Numbered from the stretch's first letter, positions 25,152 to 54,972 are shown. The stretch is DNA of 64,000 nucleotides from Ignavibacteriota bacterium (GCA_003820375.1 RPQH01000016.1:11-64010), one strand, 5' to 3'. Program-made: numbers and translations. Notes: a model not told the origin generated them from the letters alone.

Positions 25152-25152
25152 A

Positions 25153-26454: not shown

Positions 26455-26468
26455 AATTTTTTTTATAC

Positions 26469-27776: not shown

Positions 27777-27800
27777 ATCATTTTATTTTTTAAAATAGGA

Positions 27801-27824
27801 TACGCCCGCAGCTCAGCGGGCGTA
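27801..27824 (-). terminator. GC-rich hairpin (possible intra-operon attenuator or terminator)
   Basis: TACGCCCGC (27801-27809) / GCGGGCGTA (27816-27824). The T-run is better on the plus strand than on the coding (minus) strand. Confidence 0.4.
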
Positions 27825-27839
27825 ATTTTTAATTAACAC

Positions 27840-29987: not shown

Positions 29988-30778
29988 TATTTAACTTCCT
30001 TATCTAATCCAATATAATAACATTTAGGATTTGTACCGAGCTCAGCTTTAAGTAAACCATATCTTCTCTGGTTAAGGATTTTCCTGATTTTACTGTTCGG
30101 GTCTTTAAGATTACCGAAAATTCTTGCATTACGCGGACATGCATTAACACATGCGGGCGCTTCACCTTTATGAATACGGTGATAGCACAGTGTACATTTA
30201 TCGGCAATTCCTTTTTCTTCATCAATGTACCTGCATCCATACGGGCATGCCTGGACACAGTAGCCGCATCCAACGCAGCGTTCCTTATCGATTAGCACAA
30301 CACCATCGGGTGATTCATATGACGCTCCCACGGGACATACCTGTGTGCATGCAGAATCATAACAATGGTTGCACAGCTTTGGTACAAAAAATGCTTTTAC
30401 AATATCATTGCTGTCGAAGTTATCCGATTGGAAACTTTCAATTGCACCTTTGGGAGAATCAACTCGTATCTCGCCTTTGCTGTCAATCTCATATCTTTCA
30501 ACCCATGTTCTGAAATAAGATTCGGGGACATTGTTCTCAACCTTGCATGCTCTTACGCATGCTCCGCATCCGATACATCTTGTTGTATCAACAATAAAAC
30601 CCCAGTCATATTTAAGCAAGTCTTCATAGTTATCTACAACAATATCCTTATCTCCCTTGCCAAAAGCGAAGAACGAACCGCAAAGTACGCCGGCAGCAGA
30701 ATACAGACCAAGCCTTAGAAACTGGCGGCGTTCCATTTTCGCAGACTCTGAATCGTTTAGTTTTTCTTCTTTTTCCAT
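29987..30778 (-). CDS. Tat-exported 4x[4Fe-4S] ferredoxin-type subunit (NrfC/PsrB-like)
   Basis: Twin-arginine motif RRQFLRLG. Four Cys clusters: CIGCGACVRAC, CNHCYDSACTQVCP, CVGCGYCVQACP, CTLCYHR...ACVNACP. Start taken at MEKEEKL rather than the extended ORF to 30841. Confidence 0.88.
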   Translation of the reverse strand: MEKEEKLNDSESAKMERRQFLRLGLYSAAGVLCGSFFAFGKGDKDIVVDNYEDLLKYDWGFIVDTTRCIGCGACVRACKVENNVPESYFRTWVERYEIDSKGEIRVDSPKGAIESFQSDNFDSNDIVKAFFVPKLCNHCYDSACTQVCPVGASYESPDGVVLIDKERCVGCGYCVQACPYGCRYIDEEKGIADKCTLCYHRIHKGEAPACVNACPRNARIFGNLKDPNSKIRKILNQRRYGLLKAELGTNPKCYYIGLDKEVK

Positions 30779-30791
30779 GATGTGTTTGAGA

Positions 30792-32060: not shown

Positions 32061-32107
32061 AATATTTAGAATAAGTTTATAAGAATATTTTTAAGAAAAA
32101 ATTAATA

Positions 32108-34168: not shown

Positions 34169-36308
34169 TTTGCGTTATCTTATTAATTTCTTTTATTGAC
34201 TTATCCAGCAGATCACTTATGACCATATAATTATGAATACCACCGCTTCCATCTGTTTTGATTGCGGCTATTAATTTTTTAGCTGTCTGAACTTTACCTT
34301 TATCTTCTTCACTTAAATTAGAATTCTGTACATTTGCAATTAGACCTGATAAATTTTTTATTTTTGAACTAATATCACTTGTCCACTCTGCTTTCATGCC
34401 TTTGTAAGAAGCATCATGACAATCGGCACATACAGTTTCTTTCGGCTTTGATATTACATTTTTATCAGGTGCGTGGCAGTCTTCACAGGAAACTCCAGCG
34501 GTTTTCATAATATCACTTTCACCTTTTGTACTTGCAATATTGCCGCTGTACGTACCGTTCTGTACCGGGTGACATTTACTGCAATCTTTCCGCAGTTCTT
34601 TATCCTTATGATGACAGCTTGTACAAATATTTGCTTTAATTTGTACTTTGGTAAAGTCTGTATTTGTATGACAGACTTTGCACTCTATATTACTCTTTTT
34701 GCTGTGTAAGCCATGCGGAAAATTTATTGAACCGTATTTTATATTTTCCGGTACTTTATCAAAATTCTTATGACATGACTCACAGTCATTTTTTGTTACA
34801 ATAAGCTTTCTGTGTTCCTGGTCCGAGTGACATTTGGTACACTGTAAAAATTGTTTATGTGTCTGATGAGGAAATTTCTCATCGTTGAATTTTTCTATAC
34901 TCTTCGGCGTTATAGCAAAATGACAGAGGTTGCAGTATTCACTTCCATCGGATAATAATTTACTTCTGCCTGCTTTGAAATTACTGTTTCCGAGACGCTG
35001 TGCAATACCTTCAAGATTACTTGCAGTATTTTTTAACAGGCGGTAAGCATAGTCAACATTGTGAACTGCTTTACCGTTAATCACAAGATTCAAATTATTT
35101 TCCGCATCATCAAGATAATTTTTTTCCGCATCCACATTTTTGCCCTGATTTCTGGCATTATCAACCATCTGCCTCACACTTGTTATACTCGGTGATATTG
35201 TTTTAATTGCTTCATCAAATGAACTTATCCATTTATCAAGCATGCTGCCATAGTTATCGGAGTGGCATTTTACACATGATTGTCTTTTCTCGCTTAATTC
35301 ACTCTTTCCGTCATTATTTAAGTCCAGGTGGCATCCTTCACAGGAAACCTGTGCCGCAAACATTCTGCTCAAAACACTGGTTACACCTCTGCCTTCACTG
35401 CCTATATACATTTCTCTTTGCGGAGAATGCTTGAGTGTATGGCAGTTCTCGCAGTTTGCTTCCAGTGAGCTTATCATCTTTACCTTGCCGTGGCCAATTG
35501 AATTATGGCACTCTTCACAGTCAACTCCATTTTTGGTAATATGAACATTGTGTATCTTTTCATGGTTATCAAACTCCGATGTTCTTTCAACATGGCATTT
35601 GAAACATACTTTCTTATTTACTTCAGCATTACCGGTAGTTACATCTACATGGCACTGAGAACAATCTACCCCGATTTTCAAATAACTTTCATGGCTGAAC
35701 TGAAATCCTTTATGCTCAACAACTTTACGGGGAATTCCATGGCATACATTACAGCTTGTAGCTGAGTGACCTCTTTCAGAACCTTTGAAGTGGCATGTAA
35801 AACATACGTTTTTATTTATTTCAAAATGCTCTTGTTCTTCACCTCTTGCATGACAGCTGGTACAGCGGAGTTTTTTACCTCTTTTTAAATCACCTAAATG
35901 GTCTGAATGATTAAAAGAAATATTCATCTCAAATGCTGTGTTCTTTTTCAGGTCCTGCGATTCATGGCAATCCAAACAAACTTTATCATCTACTTCAGCA
36001 CGCGGACGGGGATTATATGACCCTGCAATATATCTCAGTAAATATGGAGCAGTTAATATTCTCCTGCTCGGATGGCATGTAACACATGACACATCTTTAT
36101 GCTTTGAGTGCGTTGACTGCTCGTAATACGGCTTCATGTAATGACAAACCACACAACCCGGTGAGTAAGCTGAAACAAAATAGTATGCCGCATTTATTAT
36201 AATTAAAAACAAAAACGCTCCGGCAAACAGCTTTATTATCGGATGCTTATAGTTTTTTACCCCGGTATAAATCTTATTCAGAAGATCCTTTATGTTATAC
36301 CTTTTCAT
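34158..36308 (-). CDS. NapC/NirT-like membrane-anchored multihaem cytochrome (20 CXXCH), paralogue of 32108-34168
   Basis: Same architecture: TM, then CVVCH...CVTCH. Helical inserts VHNVDYAYRLL and IHNYMVISDLL. Confidence 0.85.
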   Translation of the reverse strand: MKRYNIKDLLNKIYTGVKNYKHPIIKLFAGAFLFLIIINAAYYFVSAYSPGCVVCHYMKPYYEQSTHSKHKDVSCVTCHPSRRILTAPYLLRYIAGSYNPRPRAEVDDKVCLDCHESQDLKKNTAFEMNISFNHSDHLGDLKRGKKLRCTSCHARGEEQEHFEINKNVCFTCHFKGSERGHSATSCNVCHGIPRKVVEHKGFQFSHESYLKIGVDCSQCHVDVTTGNAEVNKKVCFKCHVERTSEFDNHEKIHNVHITKNGVDCEECHNSIGHGKVKMISSLEANCENCHTLKHSPQREMYIGSEGRGVTSVLSRMFAAQVSCEGCHLDLNNDGKSELSEKRQSCVKCHSDNYGSMLDKWISSFDEAIKTISPSITSVRQMVDNARNQGKNVDAEKNYLDDAENNLNLVINGKAVHNVDYAYRLLKNTASNLEGIAQRLGNSNFKAGRSKLLSDGSEYCNLCHFAITPKSIEKFNDEKFPHQTHKQFLQCTKCHSDQEHRKLIVTKNDCESCHKNFDKVPENIKYGSINFPHGLHSKKSNIECKVCHTNTDFTKVQIKANICTSCHHKDKELRKDCSKCHPVQNGTYSGNIASTKGESDIMKTAGVSCEDCHAPDKNVISKPKETVCADCHDASYKGMKAEWTSDISSKIKNLSGLIANVQNSNLSEEDKGKVQTAKKLIAAIKTDGSGGIHNYMVISDLLDKSIKEINKITQNGK

Positions 36309-37239
36309 TTTCTTCGTCTTTCTCCGCAGCTCTTTGCTTCATAATTTCTTCATATTCAAGCGGATGCTCATCAAGCATCTCTTTTTTTGTTACTTTACCG
36401 TTCAGCCAAACTTTGCTCATAGGAAACTTATGAGGATTCAGATGGACATTATAAAAATGCCATCCTATAATTACAAGCGTAGCGAGCAAAGCTTCATCGC
36501 TGTGCATTTCGCGTGCTATTGCATGAACATAATTTGTTACCATGTCCGGTCCGAATGAAAGATTTATTTCACCTATCCAAACAGGCTCAAACTTCCCCTG
36601 GAAAAGCCACATAATTGTTCCCGTTCCAATCATCATAATCAATCCCCAGTAAACAGCCCAATAATCGAATTTCTCTACATAGCTGAACCTGCCGTATTTA
36701 ACTTTTTCCTTCCTTATTCCCAGGTAATATTTTAGCTGGTTTATTACATCACTGAAATCCCTTAAGCTTGGTAAAAGCTCATAAAAATCTTTTCTTCCGG
36801 CCCGTGACCAGAATGAATATATTAGATGATAAACACCCACAAATATCATGACCAGTGCAAACAAGTGATGAACTGCACGTGCTCCCGGGGGACCTCCAAA
36901 CCAGTTAATAATGAACTGGAAAAAATCACTTTTCGGAAATTTCAAAGGAATGCCTGTCAGTATAAGCATTACTGTTGATGACAAAAGCAAAATATGCTGG
37001 AATCTGAAATTCCATCCAAACCTTGTAAATACTTCTGCCTTATCTTCATTCTTTGGGTCATCCTTTTTTTCAACAGGAGTTTCTATTATATCAGATTCAT
37101 TCTTTTCCTTTTCAAGAAGCTCTTCATATTCATGGCTCACTTCTTCGCGTATTTGCAGCTCAAGCTCACTAAGCTTTTTCTGCAAACGCTTGTTGACTTC
37201 CTCATTAATTTTATCTTTTATTTTCGTTTCTTCTTCCAT
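36295..37239 (-). CDS. b-type cytochrome membrane subunit (FdnI/HydC, Ni_hydr_CYTB-like) with an acidic/basic N-terminal extension
   Basis: RFGWNFRFQHILLL, four TM helices with conserved His (VHHLF, YHLIY, EMHSDE, WHFYNVH). E/K-rich first 70 aa. C-terminal PMSKVWLNGKVTKKEMLDEHPLEYEEI. Confidence 0.7.
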   Translation of the reverse strand: MEEETKIKDKINEEVNKRLQKKLSELELQIREEVSHEYEELLEKEKNESDIIETPVEKKDDPKNEDKAEVFTRFGWNFRFQHILLLSSTVMLILTGIPLKFPKSDFFQFIINWFGGPPGARAVHHLFALVMIFVGVYHLIYSFWSRAGRKDFYELLPSLRDFSDVINQLKYYLGIRKEKVKYGRFSYVEKFDYWAVYWGLIMMIGTGTIMWLFQGKFEPVWIGEINLSFGPDMVTNYVHAIAREMHSDEALLATLVIIGWHFYNVHLNPHKFPMSKVWLNGKVTKKEMLDEHPLEYEEIMKQRAAEKDEENEKV

Positions 37240-37247
37240 GATACCCG

Positions 37248-38318
37248 TTAATGTATTGTTTTATGCTTTAGCCGTTTTATCAGGTCCAGTATTACATGGA
37301 TGGCAAGCATTGTCAGTGTAATTATTGTTAGCCATTTAAATATTGAGCTGATATAATAAATCGGACCGGATTCCTCTGAGTGAGGATTAATATGTATTAG
37401 TCCTTTTGTATAATTTACATTTGCATCCTGGTGGCAATTGCCGCAGGTCTTTACAATGTTATTTGCATGAATTGTAGAGCGCGGGTCACTTTGCGGCCTG
37501 ATATCATGAATACCATGGCAGCTTGCACAATTTGCAACTGTCTTTTCACCGAACTGAACCGCTATACCATGATAACTCTCTTCATATGTTTCAATCTTAT
37601 CTGAGCTTATTCCGTATCTCTCTGTTATTACTTCCGAAGCATGGCAGTCTCCGCATGTGTTATATAGAGCAGTTTTATAAACCGATGATTTGGGGTCGTC
37701 TTTTTTCCTTATAGTATGCTCACCATGGCAATTGGTACAAACAGGGGCATCACTGTTGTTCTGCTCAAACAATGCTGTGCCATGAATGCTATGGCTGTAA
37801 GCACTGTAAATATCAAGATGGCACTGCCCGCACATTTGTGTTATTTTCTTCTTCATTTCTAATTCGGAAAGTGAAGACCTTTTTTTAATATCATGTGAGC
37901 CGTGGCAAGTCTGGCAAATAGGAGTATTAAGATTTCCTTTTAACCTTTCCTGCTGGTGAACGCTTTCCTGGAACTCAGTGTATTTTTCCGTCTCGGGTGC
38001 ACCTACTGGATTATTTTCAAAATGACAGCGTGTGCACTGAACTTTTTTTACATCTTTTTTATGTCCAAGTGCGGTTATTTCTACTATGTCACTGTGGCAA
38101 TCATAACAATTTACGGTGCTATGCGGTGATGTATTTAATGTGCTGTCACTTACATATAAAAATTTTAAATGTCCGTCTTCGGTTTTAGTGCTGAACCCGG
38201 GCTTTCCATGGCATATCAGGCATTTTTGATTCTGTATCTGCGAATAAAGAACAGGTGATATTCCAAATACAATGACAAATACCATAAGTATTGCAATATT
38301 TATAAAACTTTTTCTCAT
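37248..38318 (-). CDS. 9-haem c-type cytochrome with a C-terminal TM anchor
   Basis: Signal peptide, 9 CXXCH motifs (many as C..CHG.H.I), C-terminal hydrophobic WLTIITLTMLAIHVILDLI. Confidence 0.9.
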   Translation of the reverse strand: MRKSFINIAILMVFVIVFGISPVLYSQIQNQKCLICHGKPGFSTKTEDGHLKFLYVSDSTLNTSPHSTVNCYDCHSDIVEITALGHKKDVKKVQCTRCHFENNPVGAPETEKYTEFQESVHQQERLKGNLNTPICQTCHGSHDIKKRSSLSELEMKKKITQMCGQCHLDIYSAYSHSIHGTALFEQNNSDAPVCTNCHGEHTIRKKDDPKSSVYKTALYNTCGDCHASEVITERYGISSDKIETYEESYHGIAVQFGEKTVANCASCHGIHDIRPQSDPRSTIHANNIVKTCGNCHQDANVNYTKGLIHINPHSEESGPIYYISSIFKWLTIITLTMLAIHVILDLIKRLKHKTIH

Positions 38319-39016
38319 TGTTTATCAGATACAAATTCTTTTCCGTAAATTTCTTCATATTCTTCCGGATGCTCGCTCTGCAGTTCCTGCTTGCTAATTT
38401 TTCCTGTGAGCCAAACTTTATTCATTGGAAAAATTTTCGGTGAAAGGTGAACGTCATATATGTGCCATAGAAACAAAACAATAAATATCAGTATACCTTC
38501 GTTACTGTGAACAACCCCGGTAATATCCCATAACCATTTTGGAACTATCATGGCAATACCCCATACTTTGAGCAAAAGAATCAAGCCTGTAACTATCATT
38601 ACAGCACAGCCGAGCACAACTCCCCAATACTGGAATTTCTGAGATATGTTGTATCTTCCTGAACTCGGCTTATTTGTGTTAAGCCCCATGCTGAACTTTA
38701 AGCCGGGTATTAATTTTTTAAAATCTTTTTTCCGGAATTTAAGATGTGAGATCTCTTTGTGTCCTTTATCCGAAAATGTAATATAGAAGGCATGATATAC
38801 ACACAAAGCTATGAGTATAAATGCAAAAAGATTATGAAGTCTTCCTCTTCCCTGAAGACCGCCTTCTATTTCTATCATCATTCTGCCTAACCATGAATCG
38901 TAATATGTCAGCGATAAACCGGTTATCAGCAGCATTATTAATGATACAAATAAAATAACGTGTTGAATACGTTCTGACAGGTTAAACCTGATTACGTATT
39001 CTTCCTGAGTTTTCAT
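38315..39016 (-). CDS. b-type cytochrome membrane subunit (FdnI/HydC-like)
   Basis: RFNLSERIQHVILF, His-bearing TM helices, C-terminal PMNKVWLTGKISKQELQSEHPEEYEEI. ATGA overlap with the downstream 9-haem gene. Confidence 0.75.
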   Translation of the reverse strand: MKTQEEYVIRFNLSERIQHVILFVSLIMLLITGLSLTYYDSWLGRMMIEIEGGLQGRGRLHNLFAFILIALCVYHAFYITFSDKGHKEISHLKFRKKDFKKLIPGLKFSMGLNTNKPSSGRYNISQKFQYWGVVLGCAVMIVTGLILLLKVWGIAMIVPKWLWDITGVVHSNEGILIFIVLFLWHIYDVHLSPKIFPMNKVWLTGKISKQELQSEHPEEYEEIYGKEFVSDKQ

Positions 39017-39057
39017 TTTGTAATGATTATTTTATGGCTGTTTGTTGTTCTTTTTAA

Positions 39058-39942
39058 TTATTTTCCGGCATCCTTTTTAGGATTTATTTCTTCAGCCGGT
39101 ATATTATTATTTCCTTTATCTTCTTTTTTATCTTTTTCAATTTTTATTTCTTCAGGTGCAGGCTTTTTTTCTTCTTTTTTGATATCTTTCTTTTTGATAT
39201 CCTTCTTACCGGTATCTTCTTTTCTGATATTTTCTTTTTTTGTTTCTTTAGCCTGTTCTTTTTCAATTTCTTCAAGCTCTAAAGGATGTTCATGTTCCAT
39301 TTCTTCGCGTGTCAGGTATCCTTTAAACCATGCTTTATTCATCGGGTAAACATCAGGGTTATAAATCACGAAATAGAAATGCCATACAAATATAGCAAGT
39401 GAAGCAAGGATTGCTTCGTAATAATGAATCGCAGTAGCAATATCCATTCCTGAATTTGAAATTACCGGGAGAAATGTGTTTTCAAACCACAACACGCCGC
39501 CTGTAGCACCCATAACAATTGTACCCCATGCAACTGCCCAGTATTCCGCTTTTTCTATATAGCTGAATCTTCCGAACTTGGGTCTGACCTTTGTTTTGCC
39601 TATATAATATCTGAATGCATTATTAAGATCTGTTAAGTCCTGTTTCCTGAACCACATATCTATAATAAATTTTCTGCCTCTTTGGCTGAGTATCACATAG
39701 AATATGTGGTAAAAAGATACTGCGACCATTATTACTGCAGCTATCCTGTGAACATCTCCTCTTAATTCAAAAGCATTTTCGCCAAATAAATTAAATAAAC
39801 CTCTGACCCAAAGGGCTTCCGGAAATTTTAGTGCAAAACCCGTTATTACTAATGTGATGAAACTGGTTAATAGAAAGAAATGCTGTATCCTTTCATTTAA
39901 CGTCATCCTTAAATATTTTTCTTGTTGTTTCTTACTGCTCAT
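39058..39942 (-). CDS. b-type cytochrome membrane subunit (FdnI/HydC-like) with a K/E-rich C-terminal tail
   Basis: LNERIQHFFLL, His-bearing TM helices, PMNKAWFKGYLTREEMEHEHPLELEEI, then a Lys/Glu low-complexity tail of about 65 aa. Confidence 0.75.
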   Translation of the reverse strand: MSSKKQQEKYLRMTLNERIQHFFLLTSFITLVITGFALKFPEALWVRGLFNLFGENAFELRGDVHRIAAVIMVAVSFYHIFYVILSQRGRKFIIDMWFRKQDLTDLNNAFRYYIGKTKVRPKFGRFSYIEKAEYWAVAWGTIVMGATGGVLWFENTFLPVISNSGMDIATAIHYYEAILASLAIFVWHFYFVIYNPDVYPMNKAWFKGYLTREEMEHEHPLELEEIEKEQAKETKKENIRKEDTGKKDIKKKDIKKEEKKPAPEEIKIEKDKKEDKGNNNIPAEEINPKKDAGK

Positions 39943-39956
39943 CTTATCAAATGAAA

Positions 39957-41864
39957 TTATTTTTTCTTTTTAAATTTCTTTGAGAAATCAACTACGTTGT
40001 GTAAAACCATACCGCCAATTACAGCTATAATCATAAATATGTAAAAGTTGGTTACCCAATACATCCACGGATTTTCTTCTTCAGGTTTGACAATATGTAT
40101 CGGTGTATTGAAGAAAGCCGTTACTGCACCGGGATGACACTTTCCGCATGTTTCAGGTAAATTCTTTTTGCTGATTGTTGATAATGAATCCGTTGACGGC
40201 CTGATATTATGGTTACCATGACAGCTTTCACAATTAGCTGCGACTTTTGAACCGCCTCTTACAGCAAGTCCATGGAAACTTTCCAGATAAGACTCGGTTC
40301 TTCCGGTTGGAAGGTCATATTTCTCTGTCATCTCAACCGAGTTATGGCAATCTGAACATAACTGCACCAATCCTTTAGAGCTTGCAATCCTGCTTTCGCT
40401 TTCATCTTTCTTCAGTATCTGGTGGTTACCATGGCAGGTATTGCAGGTAGGTGCATCCGGATTATTTTTATCTAATAAAGACTGTTCATGTATGCTTCCA
40501 TTATAATCACCCAGTTGTTTTGTATGGCAATCTGATTGTCCGCATGTTTTTGCAATATTTTTCTTGTATATCTGAGCTTCAGGGTCATCAAACTTTTTCA
40601 TTTCATGTGCACCATGGCAATCAGAGCATGTTGCGGCATTCAGCTTTCCTTCCTGCAGTGCCCTGTAATGATAGCTGTCTTTATAATTGCTGATAAGAAC
40701 TTCTTCGCCTTTATAATTTTTATGAGGCAGCTTCTGGTCAACATGACAGCTAAGGCAAAGCTCAACCTGGTTTAATTTTGTAAACTCTTTTGATGATACA
40801 ACGGATTTAATATTATGCTCACCGTGGCAGCTTGCACATGTGGGTGCTTTGAAGTTACCCTTCATCAGCTCTGTACCGTGCTGCGATTTTTTAAAATGTT
40901 CAACTTCCTGCTGGTGGCATTTCCCGCATGTTTCAAGCATTTTGGCACGGATTGTGGATGCCTGTGGATTGTTCGGGTCCTGTATCATATGGTCACCATG
41001 ACAATCGGAGCAGCCGGCTGCTTCTTTTCCGCCTTTTTCAATTGAGGCGTGCACACTGGTTTTATAATCCGCAACAAACTTAGCAGACCCTCTGCCTTCA
41101 CCCGGGAACAGCTTTTCATCCAAATGGCATTTTAAACAGCTCTGTGATTCAATTGTCATCTTGCTTGTTAAAATCTGGTGTGAGCCGTGGCAATCTGTAC
41201 ATGTTGGAGCATTTTGGTTTCCCGATTGCAGAACAGTCTGGTGAACGCTGTTGTTAAAATTCTTTTCATGAGAGCCGTGGCATTTACCGCAAGTTGCGGC
41301 AACTTCATTCTTTGAAATTTTCTTTGAGCTGTGTCCGCCTAAGTGACAGCCTTCACAACCTACATTCTTTTTTGCATGAATGCTTGTTTTATATTGCTGT
41401 ATGCCTTTTGTATTGTGGCATTTCTGGCAGTTTTGCGTTTGATTTACTCTTATCTCTTTGCCGGGTGCTACATCATGTTTTGTATGGCAGTCGTAACAGT
41501 TAACCTGCTTATGAACACCGGCTTCAATTCCTTTTAAGCTTTCCTGGTGGCAGCTTTTGCAATCAACTTTTACAGGAGTTTTTGAATGAGGCAGTTCATC
41601 AGGGTTGTAACCTGTATGGCAATCAACGCATTCTGCCATGGAATGCACGGACTTTTTATAAGCTGCCGGATTGACATACATAGATACTTTTTTCCCGTTC
41701 CTGTCAGCAGTCAGGTCAGGGTCTTCATGGCATGCAAAACAAGCTTCTGTGTTTTGGGCTGAGAGTTTCACATAACCGGCGGCGAATAATGAAATAAAAA
41801 CAACTGTGCCGGTAACAAGTAAGCCGAATAAGATATTCCTTAAAAATTTATATCCTGGTTTCAT
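39957..41864 (-). CDS. 19-haem c-type cytochrome (18 CXXCH + 1 CX4CH) with a C-terminal TM anchor
   Basis: Signal/anchor at the N-terminus, motifs counted by eye including CGQSDCH, C-terminal hydrophobic FYIFMIIAVIGGMVL. Confidence 0.9.
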   Translation of the reverse strand: MKPGYKFLRNILFGLLVTGTVVFISLFAAGYVKLSAQNTEACFACHEDPDLTADRNGKKVSMYVNPAAYKKSVHSMAECVDCHTGYNPDELPHSKTPVKVDCKSCHQESLKGIEAGVHKQVNCYDCHTKHDVAPGKEIRVNQTQNCQKCHNTKGIQQYKTSIHAKKNVGCEGCHLGGHSSKKISKNEVAATCGKCHGSHEKNFNNSVHQTVLQSGNQNAPTCTDCHGSHQILTSKMTIESQSCLKCHLDEKLFPGEGRGSAKFVADYKTSVHASIEKGGKEAAGCSDCHGDHMIQDPNNPQASTIRAKMLETCGKCHQQEVEHFKKSQHGTELMKGNFKAPTCASCHGEHNIKSVVSSKEFTKLNQVELCLSCHVDQKLPHKNYKGEEVLISNYKDSYHYRALQEGKLNAATCSDCHGAHEMKKFDDPEAQIYKKNIAKTCGQSDCHTKQLGDYNGSIHEQSLLDKNNPDAPTCNTCHGNHQILKKDESESRIASSKGLVQLCSDCHNSVEMTEKYDLPTGRTESYLESFHGLAVRGGSKVAANCESCHGNHNIRPSTDSLSTISKKNLPETCGKCHPGAVTAFFNTPIHIVKPEEENPWMYWVTNFYIFMIIAVIGGMVLHNVVDFSKKFKKKK

Positions 41865-46482: not shown

Positions 46483-47745
46483 TTATTTTATCAAAACCAT
46501 TCTTTTAGTTTGAATAAAATCTTTTGTTTCCAACTTATAAAAATATATTCCGCTGCTTAAATTATTACCATCAAAATTAATTCTGTAGCTGCCAGCGCTC
46601 AATTCCTCACTGACTAATATCTCTGATTCTCTGCCTTGTAAATCATAAACAGTAAGTTTAGTATATCCTGCTACAGGTATATCAAACTCAATTGTAGTTG
46701 AAGGATTAAACGGATTTGGATAATTTTGAGATAATAAAAATATATCGGGTATGTTTTCACTGATTGGTTTAATCCCTATTAGATTTCCACCGGTTGTGGA
46801 TTTTAATATAACTCCTCCGCTTCCTACTGCCCAACCTGTATTATTATCAATAAAGAAAATTGATTTTAAACTTGTAGTTTTACCTGTTTGCTGAATATTC
46901 CAACTCAAACCATAATTACTTGTATATAATATTTTACCACTGTCACCTACAACCCAACCGGTATTTTCGTTTATAAAATATATATCCCATAGATTGGCAG
47001 TTCCAATATTGTATTGCGGTATCCAGTTATATCCACCATTTGTTGTCTTTCTTAAAAAATGATTAGCAGTGTAATTTGTAGTTCCCCAACCTGTTAATGC
47101 ATTTATGAAAAATAAAGAATTATATACGTCTGTATAGGTGTTTACCTGAACCCACCAATTTCCACCATTTGAAGTTGATAAAATAACACCTCCCATTGAA
47201 TATTCACCTGTACAATAGCCTGTTTCTGCATTTGGAAAAAATAAATCTCCATTTAACATTAATGTTCCGAAATTATTTGTTTTAGGCAACCAAGTATTAC
47301 CGCCATCTGTGGTTTTATACAAACATGGGTCTGTTTTGCTAAGTACCCATCCGGTATTATCGGAAATAAAAAAAATATTCCATATTGAATCTGAACTATA
47401 GTTTAATATACTCCAATTGTTTCCTGCGTTCGTTGTTTTAAGTATTTCAAATTGAATATTTGTTTTTGCTGAAACATAACCGGTGTTTGAAGATGTAAAA
47501 AATATGTGACCGACATTATAACCCGTAGGCATTTCTAAAAAAAACCAAGTATTTCCTCCATTGGTTGTTTTAAGCAAACCATCATTTGGAACTGCAACAT
47601 AACAAACCGATTGAGATGTTGCGTACACACAGCTTAAATTAGATATTGTTCCACAAGGTTGTTGAACCCATCCTGTTTGCGCAGAAATATTAGAAATGAA
47701 TAAAAATAATAATAGGTATAAAAACAGAATTGAAAGTTTTTTCAT
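46483..47745 (-). CDS. BNR/Asp-box (Ycf48-like) beta-propeller protein with a T9SS C-terminal sorting domain
   Basis: Repeated TTNGGNTW, TTNAGNNW, TTDGGNTW, TSNGGNWW, TTNGGYNW, SNYGLSW motifs. C-terminal NYPNPFNPSTTIEFDIP...GIYFYKL...KRMVLIK. Confidence 0.75.
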   Translation of the reverse strand: MKKLSILFLYLLLFLFISNISAQTGWVQQPCGTISNLSCVYATSQSVCYVAVPNDGLLKTTNGGNTWFFLEMPTGYNVGHIFFTSSNTGYVSAKTNIQFEILKTTNAGNNWSILNYSSDSIWNIFFISDNTGWVLSKTDPCLYKTTDGGNTWLPKTNNFGTLMLNGDLFFPNAETGYCTGEYSMGGVILSTSNGGNWWVQVNTYTDVYNSLFFINALTGWGTTNYTANHFLRKTTNGGYNWIPQYNIGTANLWDIYFINENTGWVVGDSGKILYTSNYGLSWNIQQTGKTTSLKSIFFIDNNTGWAVGSGGVILKSTTGGNLIGIKPISENIPDIFLLSQNYPNPFNPSTTIEFDIPVAGYTKLTVYDLQGRESEILVSEELSAGSYRINFDGNNLSSGIYFYKLETKDFIQTKRMVLIK

Positions 47746-47842: not shown

Positions 47843-49186
47843 TTATTCAAAACCATACTCCTTAATCTTCTTATACAATGTCTTCCTGTCAATGCCAAGT
47901 ATCTGGGCTACTTTAAGCTTGTTCCAGTTGTTTTCTTCGAGTATCTTTTTTATATATAATCTTTCTATTTCTTTTAAACCGACATTATCAAGCGAGCTGA
48001 ACGGGTTCTCTTCTGCATTCTCGCTAATCTGAAGGAATTTAAATTCATTTACGTTTAGCTTATCATTCTCCGATGTTATAACAGCTCTTTCAAGAATATT
48101 TTCAAGCTCACGCACATTTCCCTTCCAGTCATATTTCATTAAAATATTTATTGCCTCCGGTGTAATTGAAAGTGTCCTGTTCAGCTTATCACCAAGCTTC
48201 TTTAAGTAATAATCAACCAGCAGGGGAATATCATCTTTCCTTTCATTAAGCGAGGGAAGAGTGAGTGTAACGGTTGTAATCCTGTAATACAAATCTTCCC
48301 TGAATTTCTTCTGCTTTATCATTTCCTTCAGGTTCTGGTTTGTTGCAGATATGAGTCTTATATCAACGCGTTTAACTTTATCGCTTCCCAGAGCTTTAAT
48401 TTCCCATGTTTCCAGTACCCGCAGGAGCTTTGCCTGCAGTGAAAAAGGCATTTCGGCAATTTCATCAAGCAGCAGGGTACCGCCGTTTGCCTGTTCGAAA
48501 ACGCCTTTTTGCGTTTCCACAGCTCCAGTAAACGCACCGCGTATATGACCGAACATTTCGCTTTCAAGCAAATTCTCGGGAATTGCACTGCAATTAATAG
48601 CGACAAATGGTCCGTTCTTTCTTGGACTGTTGTAATGTATTGCCCTTGATACAAGTTCTTTGCCTGTTCCGCTGGGTCCTTCAACCAGTACATTAACATT
48701 TGTTTTTGAAACATTTTTTATGAATTCAAAAACTACCTGCATTTTTTTGCTTTTGCCTACTATACTGCTGAATGAATAATTCTCTTCAACCATAGTACGC
48801 AGGTTCCTGAGCTGGTTAGTCAGGTTTATTTTTTCTGCTGCTTTATCAACTTTAATTATAAACTCTTCAAGATTGAACGGCTTATTTATATAGTCATATG
48901 CACCAAGCTTCATCGATTCGACGGCAGAATTAACCGACCCGTAACCGGTTATCATAATAAAAATACAATCTGCTGGTTTTGTTTTTAGCAGGTCAAGACC
49001 TGAAAGTTTCGGCATCTGCAAATCGGATATTACTATATTATATGTGTTTTCCTTTATCATTAGCTGTGCTTCAGAGCTGTCATTAGATTCATCCACTGCA
49101 TAGCCTTTGCGTGCAAGCACTTTTTTAAGAAGCTTTGTAGAGTTTACTTCATCATCAACGACCAGGATTTTAATGTTTTCATTCAT
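47843..49186 (-). CDS. Sigma-54-dependent response regulator (NtrC family: REC + AAA+ + Fis-type HTH)
   Basis: ILVVDDE...ISDLQMP (REC), GPSGTGKE (Walker A), GAFTGA, LLLDEI (Walker B), C-terminal HTH VAQILGIDRKTLYKKIK. Start taken at MNENIKIL. Confidence 0.9.
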   Translation of the reverse strand: MNENIKILVVDDEVNSTKLLKKVLARKGYAVDESNDSSEAQLMIKENTYNIVISDLQMPKLSGLDLLKTKPADCIFIMITGYGSVNSAVESMKLGAYDYINKPFNLEEFIIKVDKAAEKINLTNQLRNLRTMVEENYSFSSIVGKSKKMQVVFEFIKNVSKTNVNVLVEGPSGTGKELVSRAIHYNSPRKNGPFVAINCSAIPENLLESEMFGHIRGAFTGAVETQKGVFEQANGGTLLLDEIAEMPFSLQAKLLRVLETWEIKALGSDKVKRVDIRLISATNQNLKEMIKQKKFREDLYYRITTVTLTLPSLNERKDDIPLLVDYYLKKLGDKLNRTLSITPEAINILMKYDWKGNVRELENILERAVITSENDKLNVNEFKFLQISENAEENPFSSLDNVGLKEIERLYIKKILEENNWNKLKVAQILGIDRKTLYKKIKEYGFE

Positions 49187-49398
49187 AGATTGCAAAAGTA
49201 TAAAAAAAAACAATAAACTTGTAGTCTTTACCTAATACATGTTAGGAGGTTGACTGTATAAATATTAAACACTTAAGCAACGCTTAATAACCCACTCTTT
49301 TTAGTCCTATATTTCCACACAAAAACAGCAGTTGGTGAAATATTTCCTCAAAGCTGTTTTAATAATCTTTAATTATAAACTAAAAATAAACTCATGAT

Positions 49399-49414
49399 TG
49401 GCACGGAAAATGAC
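49399..49414 (+). promoter_or_regulatory. Weak sigma-54-like element (TGGCACGGAAAATGAC)
   Basis: Perfect -24 TGGCAC but a poor -12 (ATGA). About 90 nt upstream of the 49507 cytochrome gene and divergent from the sigma-54 activator gene. Confidence 0.25.
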
Positions 49415-49506: not shown

Positions 49507-51603
49507 ATGAAAGAAATAAAAAAAATTCTACTAATTTTTGTTTTGTTGGTCATTTGCTCAAGTACAATTCTTAGCCAGAGGGCTTTAATTGTACCGCAGG
49601 CAGTTACACCACATGACCTAAAGACCTCAACATTTGTTCCTGACTCAACAGTATATCCGGGTTTGACAAATGTAGCGAACAAAACCATGGTTTACATGCT
49701 TGTAAAGAACATCAGCGGCACAGCTGAAATTACCAGTGCTTCATGGACTTTACAATCAAAACCAAGCGGTTCAAATGCCACCATCACTCCTGTTACTGCA
49801 CTCGGCTGGTGGGCAAAATTCAGACCTGACGTAACAGGTACCTATGAAGTTAAAGTAACTATGGTAACCTCGGCAGGTTCAAAAGATACAACAGAAAAGT
49901 TTTATGCAGCAACATATGTTGGCGTAGGCAATTTTCAGGGAATAGCTCCTACATATCCACAATGTATGACATGCCATCAGGGTATGCCGGAATTCGCTGC
50001 TATTTTCAATAAATGGAAAGTAAGCCCCCATGCTGTTAAATTCAAATTTGATATTGACAGCGGTTCAGCTACTTATGCAACCAGATGTTTCCCTTGTCAC
50101 ACAACCGGAACTGACCATAATACTGTTCAGGATAACGGCGGATTTGACGACAGGGCAAGAACACTCGGTTGGGCATGGAGTCAATGGGCACCACCGAAAC
50201 CCGGAAACTGGGATTCATTAAAGACAAAATTCCCGGCATTAACACAGTTTGCAACTATAGGCTGCGAAACCTGTCATGGACCGGGAAGTGAACATGCAGC
50301 TACAAGCGATACATTGAAAATTGATGTATCATATGATTCTAAGATGTGCGGACAGTGCCATGACGAACCATGGAGACATAATAAAATGGCTCAGTGGGAA
50401 CATTCAGGTCACTCTGAAGCTGTTTGGAGCAATTCATTTGCCCAGAACAATAACGGTACAAACAATTTAGGAAACTGTATCAGATGCCACGATGGAAGAG
50501 GTTATGCAAACTTTACAAAGGGTGTTGGAACCTACACCAACGGTATGATAGCATCAAGCCAGGAAAAGATTGGTTGTGCAGCTTGTCATGATCCACATGG
50601 AAGCGGTAATCCTTATTCATTAAGAAGCAGACCAAACAATTCCGATACTCTTGCAACCGGATATCAATATAATGAGCTTGGTGCAGGAAAAGTTTGTGCA
50701 GATTGCCATAAAAACAGAACTAATGTTACAGTAACTACTGCAACAAAGGTAAATAGTTCACATTGGGGAATGCATCATTCAGTACAGGCAGATGTTCTTT
50801 TAGGAAAAAATGCTGCATCATTTGGCGGAGCTCCTTATTTAAGCGGTTCGCATAAAAATGTTGTTCAGGATGGTTGTATCGGATGTCATATGGCACCTAC
50901 AACAGATACCGGAACAGTTAACAGAGATAAAGTAGGCGGACATTCATTCAGTATGGTTAATAGTGAAACAGGTTTTGAAAACATTGTTAATGCATGCGGT
51001 GATTGCCATCCCGGAAAAACTAACCTGGATCAATTCCTGGCTCCTGACGATTATGACGGAGACGGAATCGTTGAAGCATGGCATAAAGAAGTTGATGGAT
51101 TACTTACAAAAGTCAGAACATTTGCATTACCGCCTTTTGGTGTTGATTCAGTATCATGGGAATTAATTGCAGCTGACTCTTTCAATGTTGATCTCAGGAA
51201 AAAATACTGGAACTACCAGTTAATAGAATATGATGGAAGCCATGGAATGCATAACCCGCGTTTTGCAGTTCAGGTTTTACAGAATGATTTAATTGGTGTT
51301 CAATCAATTAGCAACGAAGTTCCTATTTCATATGCGTTATCACAGAACTTCCCGAACCCGTTCAACCCATCAACAAAGATCAATTTCTCGATACCGAGAA
51401 CTGATAATGTTATGTTGAAAATATATGATATAAACGGACAGGAAGTTTATACACTCGTAAACGAAAAGCTTAATGCAGGTAAATACTCAGCAACATGGAA
51501 TTCTGTCAATGATAGAGGCAATAGTGTTGCAAGCGGTGTTTATTTCTATAAAATTATATCAGGTGATTATGTTGAAGCGAAGAAGATGATACTCGTAAGA
51601 TAA
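49507..51603 (+). CDS. 9-haem c-type cytochrome with a T9SS C-terminal sorting domain
   Basis: Signal peptide. Motifs CMTCH, CFPCH, CETCHGPGSEH, CGQCH, CIRCH, CAACH, CADCH, CIGCH, CGDCH. C-terminal NFPNPFNPSTKINFSIP...GVYFYKI...KKMILVR. Confidence 0.85.
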   Translation: MKEIKKILLIFVLLVICSSTILSQRALIVPQAVTPHDLKTSTFVPDSTVYPGLTNVANKTMVYMLVKNISGTAEITSASWTLQSKPSGSNATITPVTALGWWAKFRPDVTGTYEVKVTMVTSAGSKDTTEKFYAATYVGVGNFQGIAPTYPQCMTCHQGMPEFAAIFNKWKVSPHAVKFKFDIDSGSATYATRCFPCHTTGTDHNTVQDNGGFDDRARTLGWAWSQWAPPKPGNWDSLKTKFPALTQFATIGCETCHGPGSEHAATSDTLKIDVSYDSKMCGQCHDEPWRHNKMAQWEHSGHSEAVWSNSFAQNNNGTNNLGNCIRCHDGRGYANFTKGVGTYTNGMIASSQEKIGCAACHDPHGSGNPYSLRSRPNNSDTLATGYQYNELGAGKVCADCHKNRTNVTVTTATKVNSSHWGMHHSVQADVLLGKNAASFGGAPYLSGSHKNVVQDGCIGCHMAPTTDTGTVNRDKVGGHSFSMVNSETGFENIVNACGDCHPGKTNLDQFLAPDDYDGDGIVEAWHKEVDGLLTKVRTFALPPFGVDSVSWELIAADSFNVDLRKKYWNYQLIEYDGSHGMHNPRFAVQVLQNDLIGVQSISNEVPISYALSQNFPNPFNPSTKINFSIPRTDNVMLKIYDINGQEVYTLVNEKLNAGKYSATWNSVNDRGNSVASGVYFYKIISGDYVEAKKMILVR

Positions 51604-51627
51604 AGTAAATACTCATTCCTTTAGTTA

Positions 51628-51659
51628 GACCCGTCTTCCCCAGAGACGGGTTTTTTTTA
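51628..51659 (+). terminator. Rho-independent terminator
   Basis: GACCCGTCT / AGACGGGT stem followed by T8. Confidence 0.85.
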
Positions 51660-51741
51660 TGCCCCTTACAGAACTTTTAAGAACCTGCTTTGTTTTGTAT
51701 TTACTGTTTTTCTTTTAATAATTGCAGACAAGGAGCAAGTT

Positions 51742-52551
51742 ATGAAACAAATGTTTACAAGGAACACCAAAGTTGTTGTTTTTTCATTTCTATTTGTATT
51801 TGTAACGTCTTTATACGTATTTTCATCAAGCGGTGGATTTACCGGCAGGACGTTAAAAACCAGTACAAGCGGCTGCGGAGGCTGTCATGGCTCCACTTCA
51901 AGCAGTGATGTAAATGTGTTTATAGGAGGTCCTGATACCATTACTGTAGGCCAAACAGGGGCATTTTCCGTTACACTTACCAGGGCGGGCAGTACAGGCT
52001 CAGGAATAGATATTGCTGCCAAGAACGGTTCTTTAGCTGCGGTTTCACCTTTTATTCATGTTTCCAACGGTGAATTAACACACAATGCAAATATTCCGTT
52101 AGTATTAGGTAATATAACATTCCTTTTTAATTATACAGCGCCGCCAAATGCAGGTACGGATACAATATTTGCTACCGGGCTAGCGACAAACAGTGATGGT
52201 ACCACAGGTGGTGATTTCTGGAACTGGGCTCCTAACCGTGTCGTTACTGTTATAAATCCAATCGGGTTAAATAATAATTCTGAACCGGTTGAGTTCCGTT
52301 TGGAACAGAATTATCCGAACCCGTTTAACCCGGCTACTACAATCTCTTTCTCAGTGCCAAAAACTGCCGAAGTAACAATAAAAGTTTATGATATTGCGGG
52401 TAATGAAGTTGCTGATATCTTTAGCGGCAAAGTAAACAGCGGAACACATGAAGTAAAATGGACTCCGCAGGGAGTTGCAAGCGGCGTTTATTTCTACAAG
52501 CTGGTATCGGAAGATTTTTCTGCTGTAAGAAAAATGATGCTTGTAAAATAA
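51742..52551 (+). CDS. Secreted protein with a single CGGCH haem-binding-type motif and a T9SS C-terminal sorting domain
   Basis: Signal peptide, SGCGGCHG near the mature N-terminus, beta-rich body, C-terminal NYPNPFNPATTISFSVP...GVYFYKL...RKMMLVK. Confidence 0.7.
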   Translation: MKQMFTRNTKVVVFSFLFVFVTSLYVFSSSGGFTGRTLKTSTSGCGGCHGSTSSSDVNVFIGGPDTITVGQTGAFSVTLTRAGSTGSGIDIAAKNGSLAAVSPFIHVSNGELTHNANIPLVLGNITFLFNYTAPPNAGTDTIFATGLATNSDGTTGGDFWNWAPNRVVTVINPIGLNNNSEPVEFRLEQNYPNPFNPATTISFSVPKTAEVTIKVYDIAGNEVADIFSGKVNSGTHEVKWTPQGVASGVYFYKLVSEDFSAVRKMMLVK

Positions 52552-53371: not shown

Positions 53372-53701
53372 ATGTCTTATAAGATAACTGAAGAATGCAT
53401 AAGCTGTAACGCATGTGTGGAAGAATGTCCAAATGATGCTATTTATGAAGGCGGTTCAAACTGGACATTAGGCGACCAGACTTTTGGTGAAGGCGAAGCA
53501 CCCGAAGGATTCCAGGCAGCATTTTCATCAGATTACTATTATGTTGTTCCCGGTAAATGCACTGAATGCAAAGGGTTCTACGATGAGCCTCAGTGCGTTG
53601 GTGTATGCCCTGTTGATTGCTGTGTACCCGATGAAAACTATACTGAAGACGAAGCTGCATTATTAAGCAAAAAAGATTATTTAGACCAGGTTGGAAGATA
53701 A
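53372..53701 (+). CDS. 2x[4Fe-4S] ferredoxin (YfhL-like)
   Basis: CISCNACVEECP and CTECKGFYDEPQCVGVCPVDCC. Confidence 0.85.
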   Translation: MSYKITEECISCNACVEECPNDAIYEGGSNWTLGDQTFGEGEAPEGFQAAFSSDYYYVVPGKCTECKGFYDEPQCVGVCPVDCCVPDENYTEDEAALLSKKDYLDQVGR

Positions 53702-53754: not shown

Positions 53755-54972
53755 TTACCGCGGAAGCTTTATGCTGAATGTTGTTCCTTTGCCAATGTGT
53801 GACTTCACACTGATATTACCTTCATGCTCTTTGATAACTTTTTTAGCAATCGAAAGTCCCAGCCCTGTACCTTTGCCGTATTCTTTTGATGAGAAGAACG
53901 GCATAAAAATTCTGTCAAGGTTTTCTTTAGGTATGCCGCTTCCCGTATCGGAAATTTCAATATAAATATTTCTTTCATCACCTGAAGTTTTTACTTTTAT
54001 TTCTCCTTCCTTTTGGATTGCCTGCATGCCGTTAGTAATTATATTTGTGAGAACCTCCTGTACCTGTGCTTTGTCAAATCTTGTGGCACCCAGGTCCTTT
54101 TCAAGCTGTTTCTTAAAGTGAATAGTCTTGCCGTCTGTAAGGTATTTGCAATTCTTAATTATCTCGTTTATAACATCATTCATTTTATTTTCCTGCTTAC
54201 TTATTGTAAGCGGCCTGGAGAAATTCAGCAAATGCCTGATTGAACGTGTAATTCTTGTTGCTTCTTCAACAATAGTTTTTAATTCCTCGTATTCCTTTTC
54301 ATTTTCTCTTTTATCGAGCAAAAGATAATCTGCGTTACCGGAAATTATATTAAGCGGATTTGAAAGACTGTGAGCAATACTGGATACAACTTCACCTATC
54401 AATGCAAGATTTTCTTTTTCCCTTAATTCCTTTTCAAGTTTTTTTACTTTGGTAATATCTCTTACTATTCCGACGGAGCCGATCATTTCATGCTGTTCAT
54501 TGTAAACAGCGAAGCGTGTTATACTGACATTTAACTTGCTCCCGTTCTTTGCAATCCGTTCGGTTTCAAAATTGGCAAGGAAACCATGCTCTATAACTTC
54601 GTTTATCAGGAAATCCTTTTCACCCTGCTTTAGCTTATGTTCGGGAAGCAGTACCTCGAAGTCACGGCCTGCCATTTCCTGGCGGGTATAACCGAATATG
54701 TTCTCTGCACCTTTGTTCCACAGGAATATTTTTGAGTCATTATCAAAACCGATTATTGCATCAATTGAATTGAGAATGATATCGGAGAAGAATTTTTCAT
54801 GTGCGGATTTGCCTTCTCTCATAAGCTGTATCATATCTTTGAGAGAAGTTCCGAGTGTTTCTAATATAAAATTATATTCTTCATCGCTTAGCTTTGACTC
54901 AAACCTGTTCCTCAAAGCTTCCAGAATAGCAGTCTTATACTTATCATATTCAGCAATTATTAATTGTTCCAT
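53755..54972 (-). CDS. Cytoplasmic PAS-domain sensor histidine kinase
   Basis: PAS region (IIGFDNDSKIFLWNKGAENIFGYTRQEMAGR). H-box SSIAHSLSNPLN, N-box LTNIITNGMQA, G-boxes ISDTGSGIP and GTGLGLSIAKK. No TM helix. Confidence 0.88.
   Translation of the reverse strand: MEQLIIAEYDKYKTAILEALRNRFESKLSDEEYNFILETLGTSLKDMIQLMREGKSAHEKFFSDIILNSIDAIIGFDNDSKIFLWNKGAENIFGYTRQEMAGRDFEVLLPEHKLKQGEKDFLINEVIEHGFLANFETERIAKNGSKLNVSITRFAVYNEQHEMIGSVGIVRDITKVKKLEKELREKENLALIGEVVSSIAHSLSNPLNIISGNADYLLLDKRENEKEYEELKTIVEEATRITRSIRHLLNFSRPLTISKQENKMNDVINEIIKNCKYLTDGKTIHFKKQLEKDLGATRFDKAQVQEVLTNIITNGMQAIQKEGEIKVKTSGDERNIYIEISDTGSGIPKENLDRIFMPFFSSKEYGKGTGLGLSIAKKVIKEHEGNISVKSHIGKGTTFSIKLPR

Follow-up and report, generated by a model that had tools for sequence, protein, structure and literature searches.

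The 64,000-nt stretch of DNA analysed here (hereafter, the window) belongs to a metagenome-assembled genome (MAG) of an Ignavibacteriota bacterium (GCA_003820375.1, RPQH01000016.1:11-64010) and is low in G+C (about 0.26–0.43). It contains, in tandem on the plus strand and separated by 138 bp, two genes that we denote A (49507..51603) and B (51742..52551); both were confirmed as open reading frames (ORFs) at the positions given in a preliminary description of the locus. Gene A encodes a 698-residue nonahaem c-type cytochrome, recognized by its nine CxxCH motifs and by Pfam and NCBIfam matches, that bears a type-A C-terminal domain (CTD) of the kind used for sorting by a type IX secretion system (T9SS). 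Gene B encodes a 269-residue protein of the choice-of-anchor V family (NF041895) with a single CGGCH motif and a CTD of the same type (TIGR04183). With moderate confidence, we propose that A is an OcwA-like nonahaem reductase that is exported by a T9SS to the cell surface or beyond, and that works there with an adjacent porin-cytochrome module.

The AlphaFold2 model of A (overall predicted local distance difference test score, pLDDT, 80; predicted TM-score, pTM, 0.71) suggests a five-part architecture. The first 23 residues or so (49507..49575; MKEIKKILLIFVLLVICSSTILS) form a predicted Sec signal peptide, with a basic n-region and then a hydrophobic helix modelled at residues 2–21; the equivalent helix of B is modelled at residues 2–26. 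Both leaders were judged by eye and from the models, and they agree with the Sec leaders described previously; the position of cleavage in A is a presumptive one. There follow a haem-free β-sandwich (residues 26–135; 49582..49911), the strands of which are modelled with pLDDT values of about 86–96, and the haem domain (residues about 150–510; 49954..51036), delineated by the motif positions, by conservation and by the profile match to OcwA that is described below. Beyond these, an NrfA/OcwA-like helical module (residues 525–592; 51079..51282), with helices modelled at 525–540, 561–576 and 584–592, leads into a terminal β-sandwich (residues 599–696), to which the CTD (residues 615–698; 51349..51600) corresponds. 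Within the N-terminal β-sandwich, D46, W80, W102 and D127 are conserved, and this domain possibly serves in substrate or surface binding.

The canonical T9SS CTD previously ascribed to each protein is borne out by profile hidden Markov models: TIGR04183 scores 40.9 bits with A and 44.1 bits with B (cutoff 23), and PF18962 scores 32.2 and 40.8 bits, respectively (gathering score 27). In B, the CTD occupies residues 191–269 (52312..52548), and a β-sandwich is modelled at 186–267. The top Foldseek match to the CTD of A is 8gl8_D, a substrate CTD in the SprA–PorV extended translocon (TMt 0.62), followed by 8gl6_D (a RemA CTD complex) and the CTDs of PorU (6za2) and PorZ (5m11); the PorU CTD also matches the C-terminal domain of A by sequence (E-value 5e-4, against the PDB). 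When A was aligned with 39 homologues (50–71% identity; 40 sequences in total), the CTD was found to be retained throughout, with its N(Y/F)PNPFNP, YD-x-x-G, GxYF and KKMxLxK/R elements, and N614, P616–P621, G644, G677, Y679, F680 and M694 are invariant. For B, likewise, 60 aligned sequences all share N190, P192–F195, G220 and Y250, and the CTDs of both proteins are under clear purifying selection. Both end in K-K-M-x-L-x-K/R, and both contain the YD-x-x-G element, with the invariant glycines G644 (A) and G220 (B); at the level of pattern only, this fits the loop-β3-β4 motif of T9SS CTDs, the glycine of which is required for secretion of RgpB (PMC11285876). A BNR/Ycf48-like β-propeller (46483..47745, minus strand; PF14870) is the third type-A CTD protein (TIGR04183, 42.9 bits) to be encoded inside 6 kb of the window, and CTD cargo would therefore appear to be frequent in this genome.

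The nine haem motifs reported earlier for A lie at residues 153, 194, 253, 281, 324, 357, 397, 457 and 497, whereas shuffles of its composition yield a mean of 0.017. All of its 19 cysteines fall in these motifs, save for Cys17 in the leader. Eight of the motifs are invariant in the 40 aligned sequences and the remaining one, site 2 (C194), is missing from 10 of them; additionally, eight histidines outside the motifs (175, 263, 302, 364, 423, 449, 479 and 582) are invariant, as is Met462. Every CxxCH overlaps a short helix in the AlphaFold2 model. These conserved haem sites, together with the genes for CcmE (15553..15945, plus strand; PF03100, 62 bits, and the NCBIfam CcmE model) and CcmF (15970..18327, plus strand; PF16327, PF01578 and the NCBIfam CcmF/NrfE models) of System I cytochrome c maturation, both in the window, uphold the view of A as a real multihaem c-type cytochrome. 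Its family is a large one: a word-indexed search gave more than 1,200 matches, of ~700 residues each. The best 120 of these are all about 680–740 residues long, and 119 carry PF18962; those among the best 120 that are named are annotated as 'T9SS type A sorting domain-containing protein' and come from Ignavibacteria. Some members of the family, e.g. P0027, are labelled nitrite reductase by their source.

Against the PDB, the best match to A is 6I5B (phmmer E-value 5.9e-10; profile E-value 8.6e-17), the structure of OcwA from Thermincola potens. This terminal reductase of the cell surface has nine haems, a globular haem domain and, at its C-terminus, a bundle of three helices; its open-coordination haems have His-His at their flanks, and its activity extends to iron oxides, shuttles, nitrite and hydroxylamine (PMC6703420). 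The second, 6QVM (681 residues; 'multiheme cytochrome cf'; profile E-value 2.4e-15), matches by its length alone OmhA of Carboxydothermus ferrireducens, a cytochrome that shearing released from the cell surface and also from biogenic magnetite (PMC7829351). Both OcwA and OmhA are cell-surface terminal reductases of Gram-positive iron reducers (PMC6703420, PMC7829351). Like OcwA, A has nine haems, and a globular haem domain that is succeeded by C-terminal helices; these align with the C-terminal helices of OcwA and with residues about 279–449 of NrfA. Moreover, an HH pair at residues 423–424 of A, of which H423 is invariant, aligns with a VHHP stretch in OcwA that is probably the His-His motif of its haem 5. 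The differences are equally plain: identity with OcwA and OmhA is low and only residues about 247–594 of A align, A adds both the N-terminal β-sandwich and the T9SS domain, and haem site 2 is dispensable in the A family. OcwA has been placed as the sole monoderm protein within a clade of Gram-negative nonahaem proteins (PMC7829351), and it is evidently to a clade of this kind that A belongs. The host of A being a diderm, A must therefore cross an outer membrane, unlike OcwA and OmhA.

Two other assignments for A were rejected. NrfA matches its last haems and the helices that follow (residues 442–594; profile E-value about 6e-6), and the PDB matches also include 8rv0, an octaheme nitrite reductase; an NrfA-type nitrite reductase was ruled out because A contains no CxxCK motif. 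An MtrC/OmcB-type lipoprotein was also ruled out, since A has no lipobox (Cys17 is unconserved and lies outside any lipobox context) and the OmcA/MtrC and DmsE/GSU2203 decahaem models score only 26–36 bits with it, far below their cutoffs of 192–325.

The window also encodes what appears to be an electron-transfer pathway on the minus strand. A porin-cytochrome-like module (24462..28403), recognized from haem counts and Pfam cytochrome families, comprises genes for a 3-haem protein (27840..28403), a porin-like protein of 435 residues (26469..27776; 55% identical to its equivalent in locus L002, below), a 14-haem protein (25153..26454) and a 4-haem protein (24462..25175). Beyond it lies an inner-membrane/periplasmic electron-transfer cluster (28818..41864) with NrfD-like, 4Fe-4S and three cytochrome b561-type components, and multihaem cytochromes with 15, 17, 20, 9 and 18 CxxCH motifs. 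The end of this cluster is 7.6 kb from A, in reasonable accord with the distance of ~7 kb first given. The N-terminus of the 4-haem protein (...LVFIYQGC-SELEDD) has a possible lipoprotein cysteine and then an acidic run, which we take to resemble the surface-lipoprotein export signal of Bacteroidetes; this predicted protein may be the module's own extracellular cytochrome.

Seven neighbourhoods of A and its homologues were compared, namely, those in the window and in loci L001, L002, L083, L084, L085 and L086. A multihaem/porin-like cluster adjoins A in six of them. The window, L002, L085 and L086 have the porin-like module, with a porin-like protein of 420–447 residues; in the last three of these, the module directly abuts the A homologue, in the same gene order as in the window; in L001 and L083, the homologue instead lies beside a related multihaem/cytochrome b cluster. 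CcmE and CcmF are encoded directly beside A homologues or within about 9 kb of them, at the far end of the module (L002, L085 and L086). The ferredoxin gene (53372..53701, plus strand; Pfam Fer4) and the gene for an AtoS-like PAS sensor histidine kinase (53755..54972, minus strand) that neighbour A in the window have counterparts downstream of its homologues in L001, L083 and L085, such that the PAS kinase follows A in four of the seven loci, and L001 and L086 also have a homologue of the BNR/Ycf48-like CTD protein near A. Ignavibacteria are known to possess porin-cytochrome clusters of the Geobacter-like type (PMC7399161). The proximity of A to the 3-haem/porin-like/multihaem module is an association only; because it recurs in six of the seven loci, A most likely receives its electrons from this neighbouring conduit.

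Taken together, these data lead us to envisage the following course of events. Sec would export A to the periplasm, as its leader suggests, and System I, of which CcmE and CcmF are encoded in the window, would attach the haems covalently. A T9SS would then recognize the type-A CTD and pass the folded protein over the outer membrane, and A would end up outside the cell, either tethered to the surface after removal of the CTD or released. There, it could carry out the terminal reduction of extracellular acceptors, such as Fe(III)/Mn(IV) minerals, humics or electrodes, possibly as a multipurpose enzyme, with electrons running from the quinol-oxidising cytochrome b/NrfD/multihaem cluster, through the porin-cytochrome-like conduit, to A. 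In this scheme, the T9SS would fill the role that a type II secretion system (T2SS) plays for MtrC and OmcA of Shewanella, without replacing the conduit across the outer membrane. B would be a small surface protein with an immunoglobulin (Ig)-like fold; it may bind one haem, or else some other metal, and, more speculatively, could be a partner of A or a relay. That a holo-cytochrome crosses the outer membrane in its folded state, as suggested in the preliminary description, is the most economical reading, because A has a bona fide CTD and is a multihaem c-type cytochrome; the profile matches to the CTD, the conservation of the haem sites and the presence of CcmE and CcmF are all consistent with it, and the export of MtrC and OmcA by the T2SS in Shewanella provides a precedent for the secretion of holo-cytochromes (PMC3279761).

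In comparison with the established systems, A would thus share with Shewanella MtrC/OmcA and MtrAB, and with Geobacter OmaB–OmbB–OmcB, the dedicated secretion of a holo-cytochrome that is supplied with electrons by a porin-cytochrome conduit. It differs from MtrC and OmcA, which are T2SS-exported lipoproteins of another fold, in having no lipobox, in its T9SS CTD and in its NrfA/OcwA lineage. With the type-A cargo of the T9SS (e.g. RgpB, RemA/RemZ, chitinases and M36 peptidases), it has in common a Sec leader, a passenger and a C-terminal β-sandwich of ~80 residues. The cargo of Bacteroidota has hydrolase or adhesin passengers, whereas the passenger of A is predicted to be a haem-loaded redox protein, and the host is a member of the Ignavibacteriota.

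Several observations weigh against this proposal. Foldseek searches with the whole model of A returned only β-sandwich domains and thus did not confirm the fold of the haem domain. The 435-residue porin-like protein matches no family and no PDB entry, and its β-barrel nature is for this reason a presumption. No cytochrome genes lie within 10 kb of the A homologue in L084, the sole such locus of the seven, and, as OcwA-like proteins also reduce nitrite and hydroxylamine (PMC6703420), the physiological acceptor of A may be other than a metal. No covalently haem-loaded cargo of the T9SS is documented in the searchable literature. To our knowledge, the T9SS of Ignavibacteriota is known from homologues only. 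Finally, NCBIfam and Pfam recognized no T9SS core gene among the 20 ORFs scanned in the window, which represents 64 kb of the MAG. SprA, PorV proper, PorU and GldKLMN were found neither there nor in ~1.2 Mb of related loci; this sample was gathered with a scan of genome contigs, keyed mostly on the CTD motif, and surrounds 151 CTD ORFs, largely of Ignavibacteria and other MAGs of the Fibrobacteres–Chlorobi–Bacteroidetes (FCB) group, the CTD proteins in question being unrelated to A. The sample contains no SprA-sized non-cargo ORF, no motif of the formylglycine-generating enzyme (FGE)-sulfatase type (GldK-like) and no run of genes of K-L-M-N size; a concatenated scan of 30 secreted ORFs revealed no T9SS core gene, nine large CTD ORFs included no PorU, and the batch hmmscan of the sampled loci was one that hides singleton families. 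An Ignavibacteriales MAG does encode a PorV/PorQ-family outer-membrane protein (NF033709, 212 bits; cutoff 90), relatives of which are so named in several Ignavibacteria MAGs, within a block that resembles a polysaccharide-utilisation locus; it falls below the PorV and PorQ equivalog cutoffs and is, therefore, a paralogue only.

This last set of results bears on the possibility that the CTD is not used for secretion at all, being a relic or residing in a genome that has no T9SS, and that A and B remain in the periplasm as cytochromes. In its favour, an earlier survey (Abby et al. 2016, as cited in PMC5837995) placed the T9SS in Bacteroidetes only, and core genes were not recognized in the 64 kb of this MAG. 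Later literature points the other way: BLAST suggests a T9SS in Ignavibacteriota (PMC5837995), the system 'may also be present' in this phylum (PMC11285876), and carbohydrate-active enzymes (CAZymes) of Melioribacter roseus bear the Por sorting domain. Given these homologues and tagged enzymes, and the PorV/PorQ-family genes of Ignavibacteria MAGs, a T9SS is likely to be present in the lineage, as far as sequence comparison can tell. Furthermore, CTD cargo is abundant (roughly half of the 151 ORFs in the 1.2 Mb are of Ignavibacteria type), and the invariant CTD residues are kept in homologues of A and B at 32–71% identity, such that an unused CTD seems to us most improbable. Only slightly less improbable is the suggestion made in the preliminary description that T9SS-displayed cytochromes constitute a surface electron route independent of porin-cytochrome complexes. 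A and B do carry their own export signal and are encoded outside the porin-cytochrome operon, 7.6 kb from the nearest cytochrome gene, and the L084 homologue stands apart from any cytochrome genes. We nevertheless reject independence: the T9SS moves protein, not electrons, a surface cytochrome still needs a path for electrons across the outer membrane, and the conserved neighbour of A, with the porin-like protein in four of the loci, would provide one.

It is also conceivable, though on balance unlikely, that A is exported by the T9SS and is something other than a tethered metal reductase: either a secreted or surface-bound enzyme for soluble oxyanions of nitrogen or sulfur (nitrite, hydroxylamine, sulfite or tetrathionate), or a released, soluble electron shuttle. 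The match of its C-terminal haems and helices to NrfA, the appearance of 8rv0, the nitrite reductase labels within the family, and the retention of the HH pair that aligns with OcwA, itself a reductase of nitrite and hydroxylamine, can all be read in this way. Many type-A CTD cargoes of Flavobacterium are, moreover, released and not anchored. On the other side, A lacks the catalytic CxxCK, a quarter of the A family dispenses with haem site 2, which is an open site in OcwA, and there is no obvious reason for a nitrite reductase to be placed outside the cell. A consistently lies by porin-cytochrome-like and quinol-oxidising clusters, not by nrfH-type partners. An extracellular reductase fed by the adjacent conduit remains the interpretation of A that we prefer.

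The case of B is more finely balanced. Its single haem-type motif is present as first described (CGGCH, residues 45–49; 51874..51888), accounts for both of its cysteines and is not expected by chance (shuffle mean, 0.0002 motifs). The N-terminal domain matches NF041895 with 118.2 bits over residues 18–165 (cutoff 42); a weaker match is that to the MXAN_6652 MYXO-CTERM family. A word-indexed search with this domain found three proteins only; an exhaustive search with residues 27–173 recovered 1,062 representative clusters, in which the domain (about residues 25–175) always directly follows the signal peptide. Among the best 150 representatives, a type-A CTD forms the C-terminus of at least 107, and Cys/transmembrane/Arg-rich, MYXO-CTERM-like tails that of two; like the choice-of-anchor V family at large (NF041895; MXAN_6652), B presents its domain after a signal peptide, in a family with varied anchors that are mostly T9SS CTDs. 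In an alignment of B with these 150 (P0124–P0273; 151 sequences), C45, C48 and H49 each occur in 149. Of the two spacings, CxCH is that of 96 sequences and CxxCH that of the remainder, and CGGCH is thus the canonical-spacing form of an otherwise invariant C-x(1,2)-CH; this invariance, and the position of B beside a multihaem cytochrome, are observed here. In its AlphaFold2 model (pLDDT 91), the motif lies in an ordered coil, not a helix, which packs on an Ig-like sandwich that is followed by the CTD sandwich.

Since CGGCH is one spacing variant of a motif that is mostly CxCH, the identification of B as a haem protein is hypothetical: B may plausibly be a monohaem protein, and a metal site, or a disulfide with a histidine, on an Ig-like surface protein with no part in electron transfer is about equally likely; for the latter explanation we would allow a little short of an even chance. 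It would account for the prevalence of CxCH and for the modelled coil, which is unlike the short helix typical of c-type sites. Neither Pfam nor NCBIfam nor Foldseek gives a cytochrome family or fold match for B, Foldseek returning generic Ig folds only. His114, the best candidate for a distal ligand, is present in 117 of the 151 sequences, is replaced by Gln in 27 and in the L083 orthologue, and shows no co-variation with the CxCH/CxxCH spacing; as an obligatory distal ligand it was accordingly ruled out. Haem binding is favoured by the full conservation of the Cys, Cys and His (149 of 151 sequences for each), which no other polar residue shares, and by the B gene directly following that of a multihaem cytochrome in two genomes: the orthologue (59% identity) in L083, the closest relative, also lies after the gene of the A orthologue. 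In the window, B is probably co-transcribed with A. In the other loci examined, B does not follow A. Ferousi et al. (J Biol Chem, 2019; listed among the references of PMC11492766) are said to have reported a functional contracted haem-binding motif, which also speaks for haem in B. If the choice-of-anchor V family, with its 1,062 clusters and CxCH in about two thirds, binds haem, it would be a very large family with a contracted attachment site.

As had been noted, a sigma-54-dependent response regulator (REC, AAA+ and Fis-type helix-turn-helix; PF00158, 235 bits, PF00072 and PF02954) is encoded divergently from A, at 47843..49213 on the minus strand. A divergent regulator of this kind precedes A, or a pair of CTD-cytochrome genes that includes A, in four of the seven loci (the window, L001, L083 and L085). 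In the intergenic region, 108 nt upstream of A, is a possible but weak -24/-12 element (TGGCACGGAAAATGAC; 49399..49414, plus strand), with a perfect TGGCAC -24 box and a poor -12 element (three mismatches); the number of matches in a window-wide scan for sigma-54 promoters was not above chance. A similar sequence, TGGCAC-N5-TTGA, occurs upstream of the A homologue in L007, about 47 nt before position 8483, and no TGGCAC-type element was found upstream of A in L001 or L002. These TGGCAC-N5-(A/T)TGA elements may represent a form of the sigma-54 -24/-12 promoter that is particular to this lineage. Given the poor -12 element and the chance-level matches, the link to sigma-54 rests on the conserved synteny in four of the seven loci and not on the promoter; from this synteny, the adjacent response regulator and the PAS histidine kinase probably control the expression of A.

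Three multihaem architectures were found with a type-A CTD scoring above cutoff: nine haems in ~700 residues (A), six in ~605 and nine in ~920. Members of the six-CxxCH family (L001, 7937-9751; L007, 10901-12718) score 42–44 bits with TIGR04183 and have OcwA as their best PDB match; their genes adjoin that of the A homologue, upstream in L001 and downstream in L007, roughly in the place taken by B. The longer nonahaem proteins (919–923 residues; L003, 563-3322; L004, 9974-12745) are 32–36% identical to A, and come from MAGs that are labelled Deferribacteres or are unclassified; the combination of nine haems and a CTD is therefore not confined to Ignavibacteria. As a tentative and rather doubtful generalization, the T9SS could be a general route by which the FCB group displays haem-loaded proteins, encompassing at least three multihaem families and, in addition, the choice-of-anchor V proteins (~1,000 clusters) as small surface monohaem cytochromes that mostly have CxCH.

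Ignavibacteria recur on anodes and among the members of iron-reducing communities, and a conserved, T9SS-tagged nonahaem family offers a concrete, testable answer to how they place cytochromes beyond the outer membrane. Previous studies of electron transfer in these organisms sought porin-cytochrome genes of the Geobacter and Shewanella types, and used generic localisation predictors (PMC7399161). In the searchable full-text literature, we found no paper that joins the T9SS with multihaem or c-type cytochromes, extracellular electron transfer or CXXCH in a relevant sense, and neither the M. roseus respiration paper nor the Ignavibacterium album genome paper mentions sorting domains on cytochromes; the co-occurrence is visible in public annotation, through the T9SS sorting-domain names, and appears so far to be uninterpreted. 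Were our proposal for A correct, it would be the first redox-cofactor cargo for the T9SS, a holo-cytochrome of ~65 kDa would be able to pass the SprA translocon, and the CTD would become a simple sequence marker for extracellular cytochromes in FCB-group metagenomes. Should the B family bind haem, the known use of the contracted attachment motif would be greatly widened.

The PorV/PorQ-family genes mentioned above belong to a conserved block, the products of which are a protein with a type-A CTD, a TonB-dependent receptor-like protein (~900 residues), an unannotated protein (~1,030–1,230 residues) with the C-terminal sequence ...G(K/R)F-x-(I/L)IK, and the PorV/PorQ-family protein itself (341–350 residues). 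The block was seen in L062 (72-9247), L087, L088 and L089, and also in L020, L066, L072 and L078; in L087–L089, which are from Ignavibacteria, it continues with genes for a rotamase-like protein, ATP-binding cassette (ABC) sugar uptake and GH130 enzymes. Its appearance is that of a polysaccharide-utilisation-like locus that has a PorV-like component of its own.

Some further features of secreted proteins in the window may be recorded. By eye, the residue that directly follows the likely cleavage site is Gln in most of the predicted signal-peptidase I substrates (e.g. NISA↓QTGW and VLYS↓QNLN), the N-termini examined being those encoded at 837-1319, 2230-3936, 26469-27776, 37248-38318, 39957-41864, 42778-44001, 46483-47745 and 49507-51603; this 'Q-rule' has been described as specific to Bacteroidetes and not to the whole FCB group (PMC5837995). 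A secreted protein of 407 residues (42778-44001, minus strand), the gene of which separates the cytochrome cluster from the CTD genes, has an aromatic C-terminal residue, as an outer-membrane β-barrel would, and a secreted protein of 480 residues (58075-59517, minus strand) has a lipoprotein-like leader; neither has a Pfam or NCBIfam match. Lastly, the secreted protein encoded at 2230-3936 (minus strand) combines six WG-containing β repeats (PF14903, 217 bits) with a C-terminal Hint module of the intein/hedgehog type, which is an unusual pairing.

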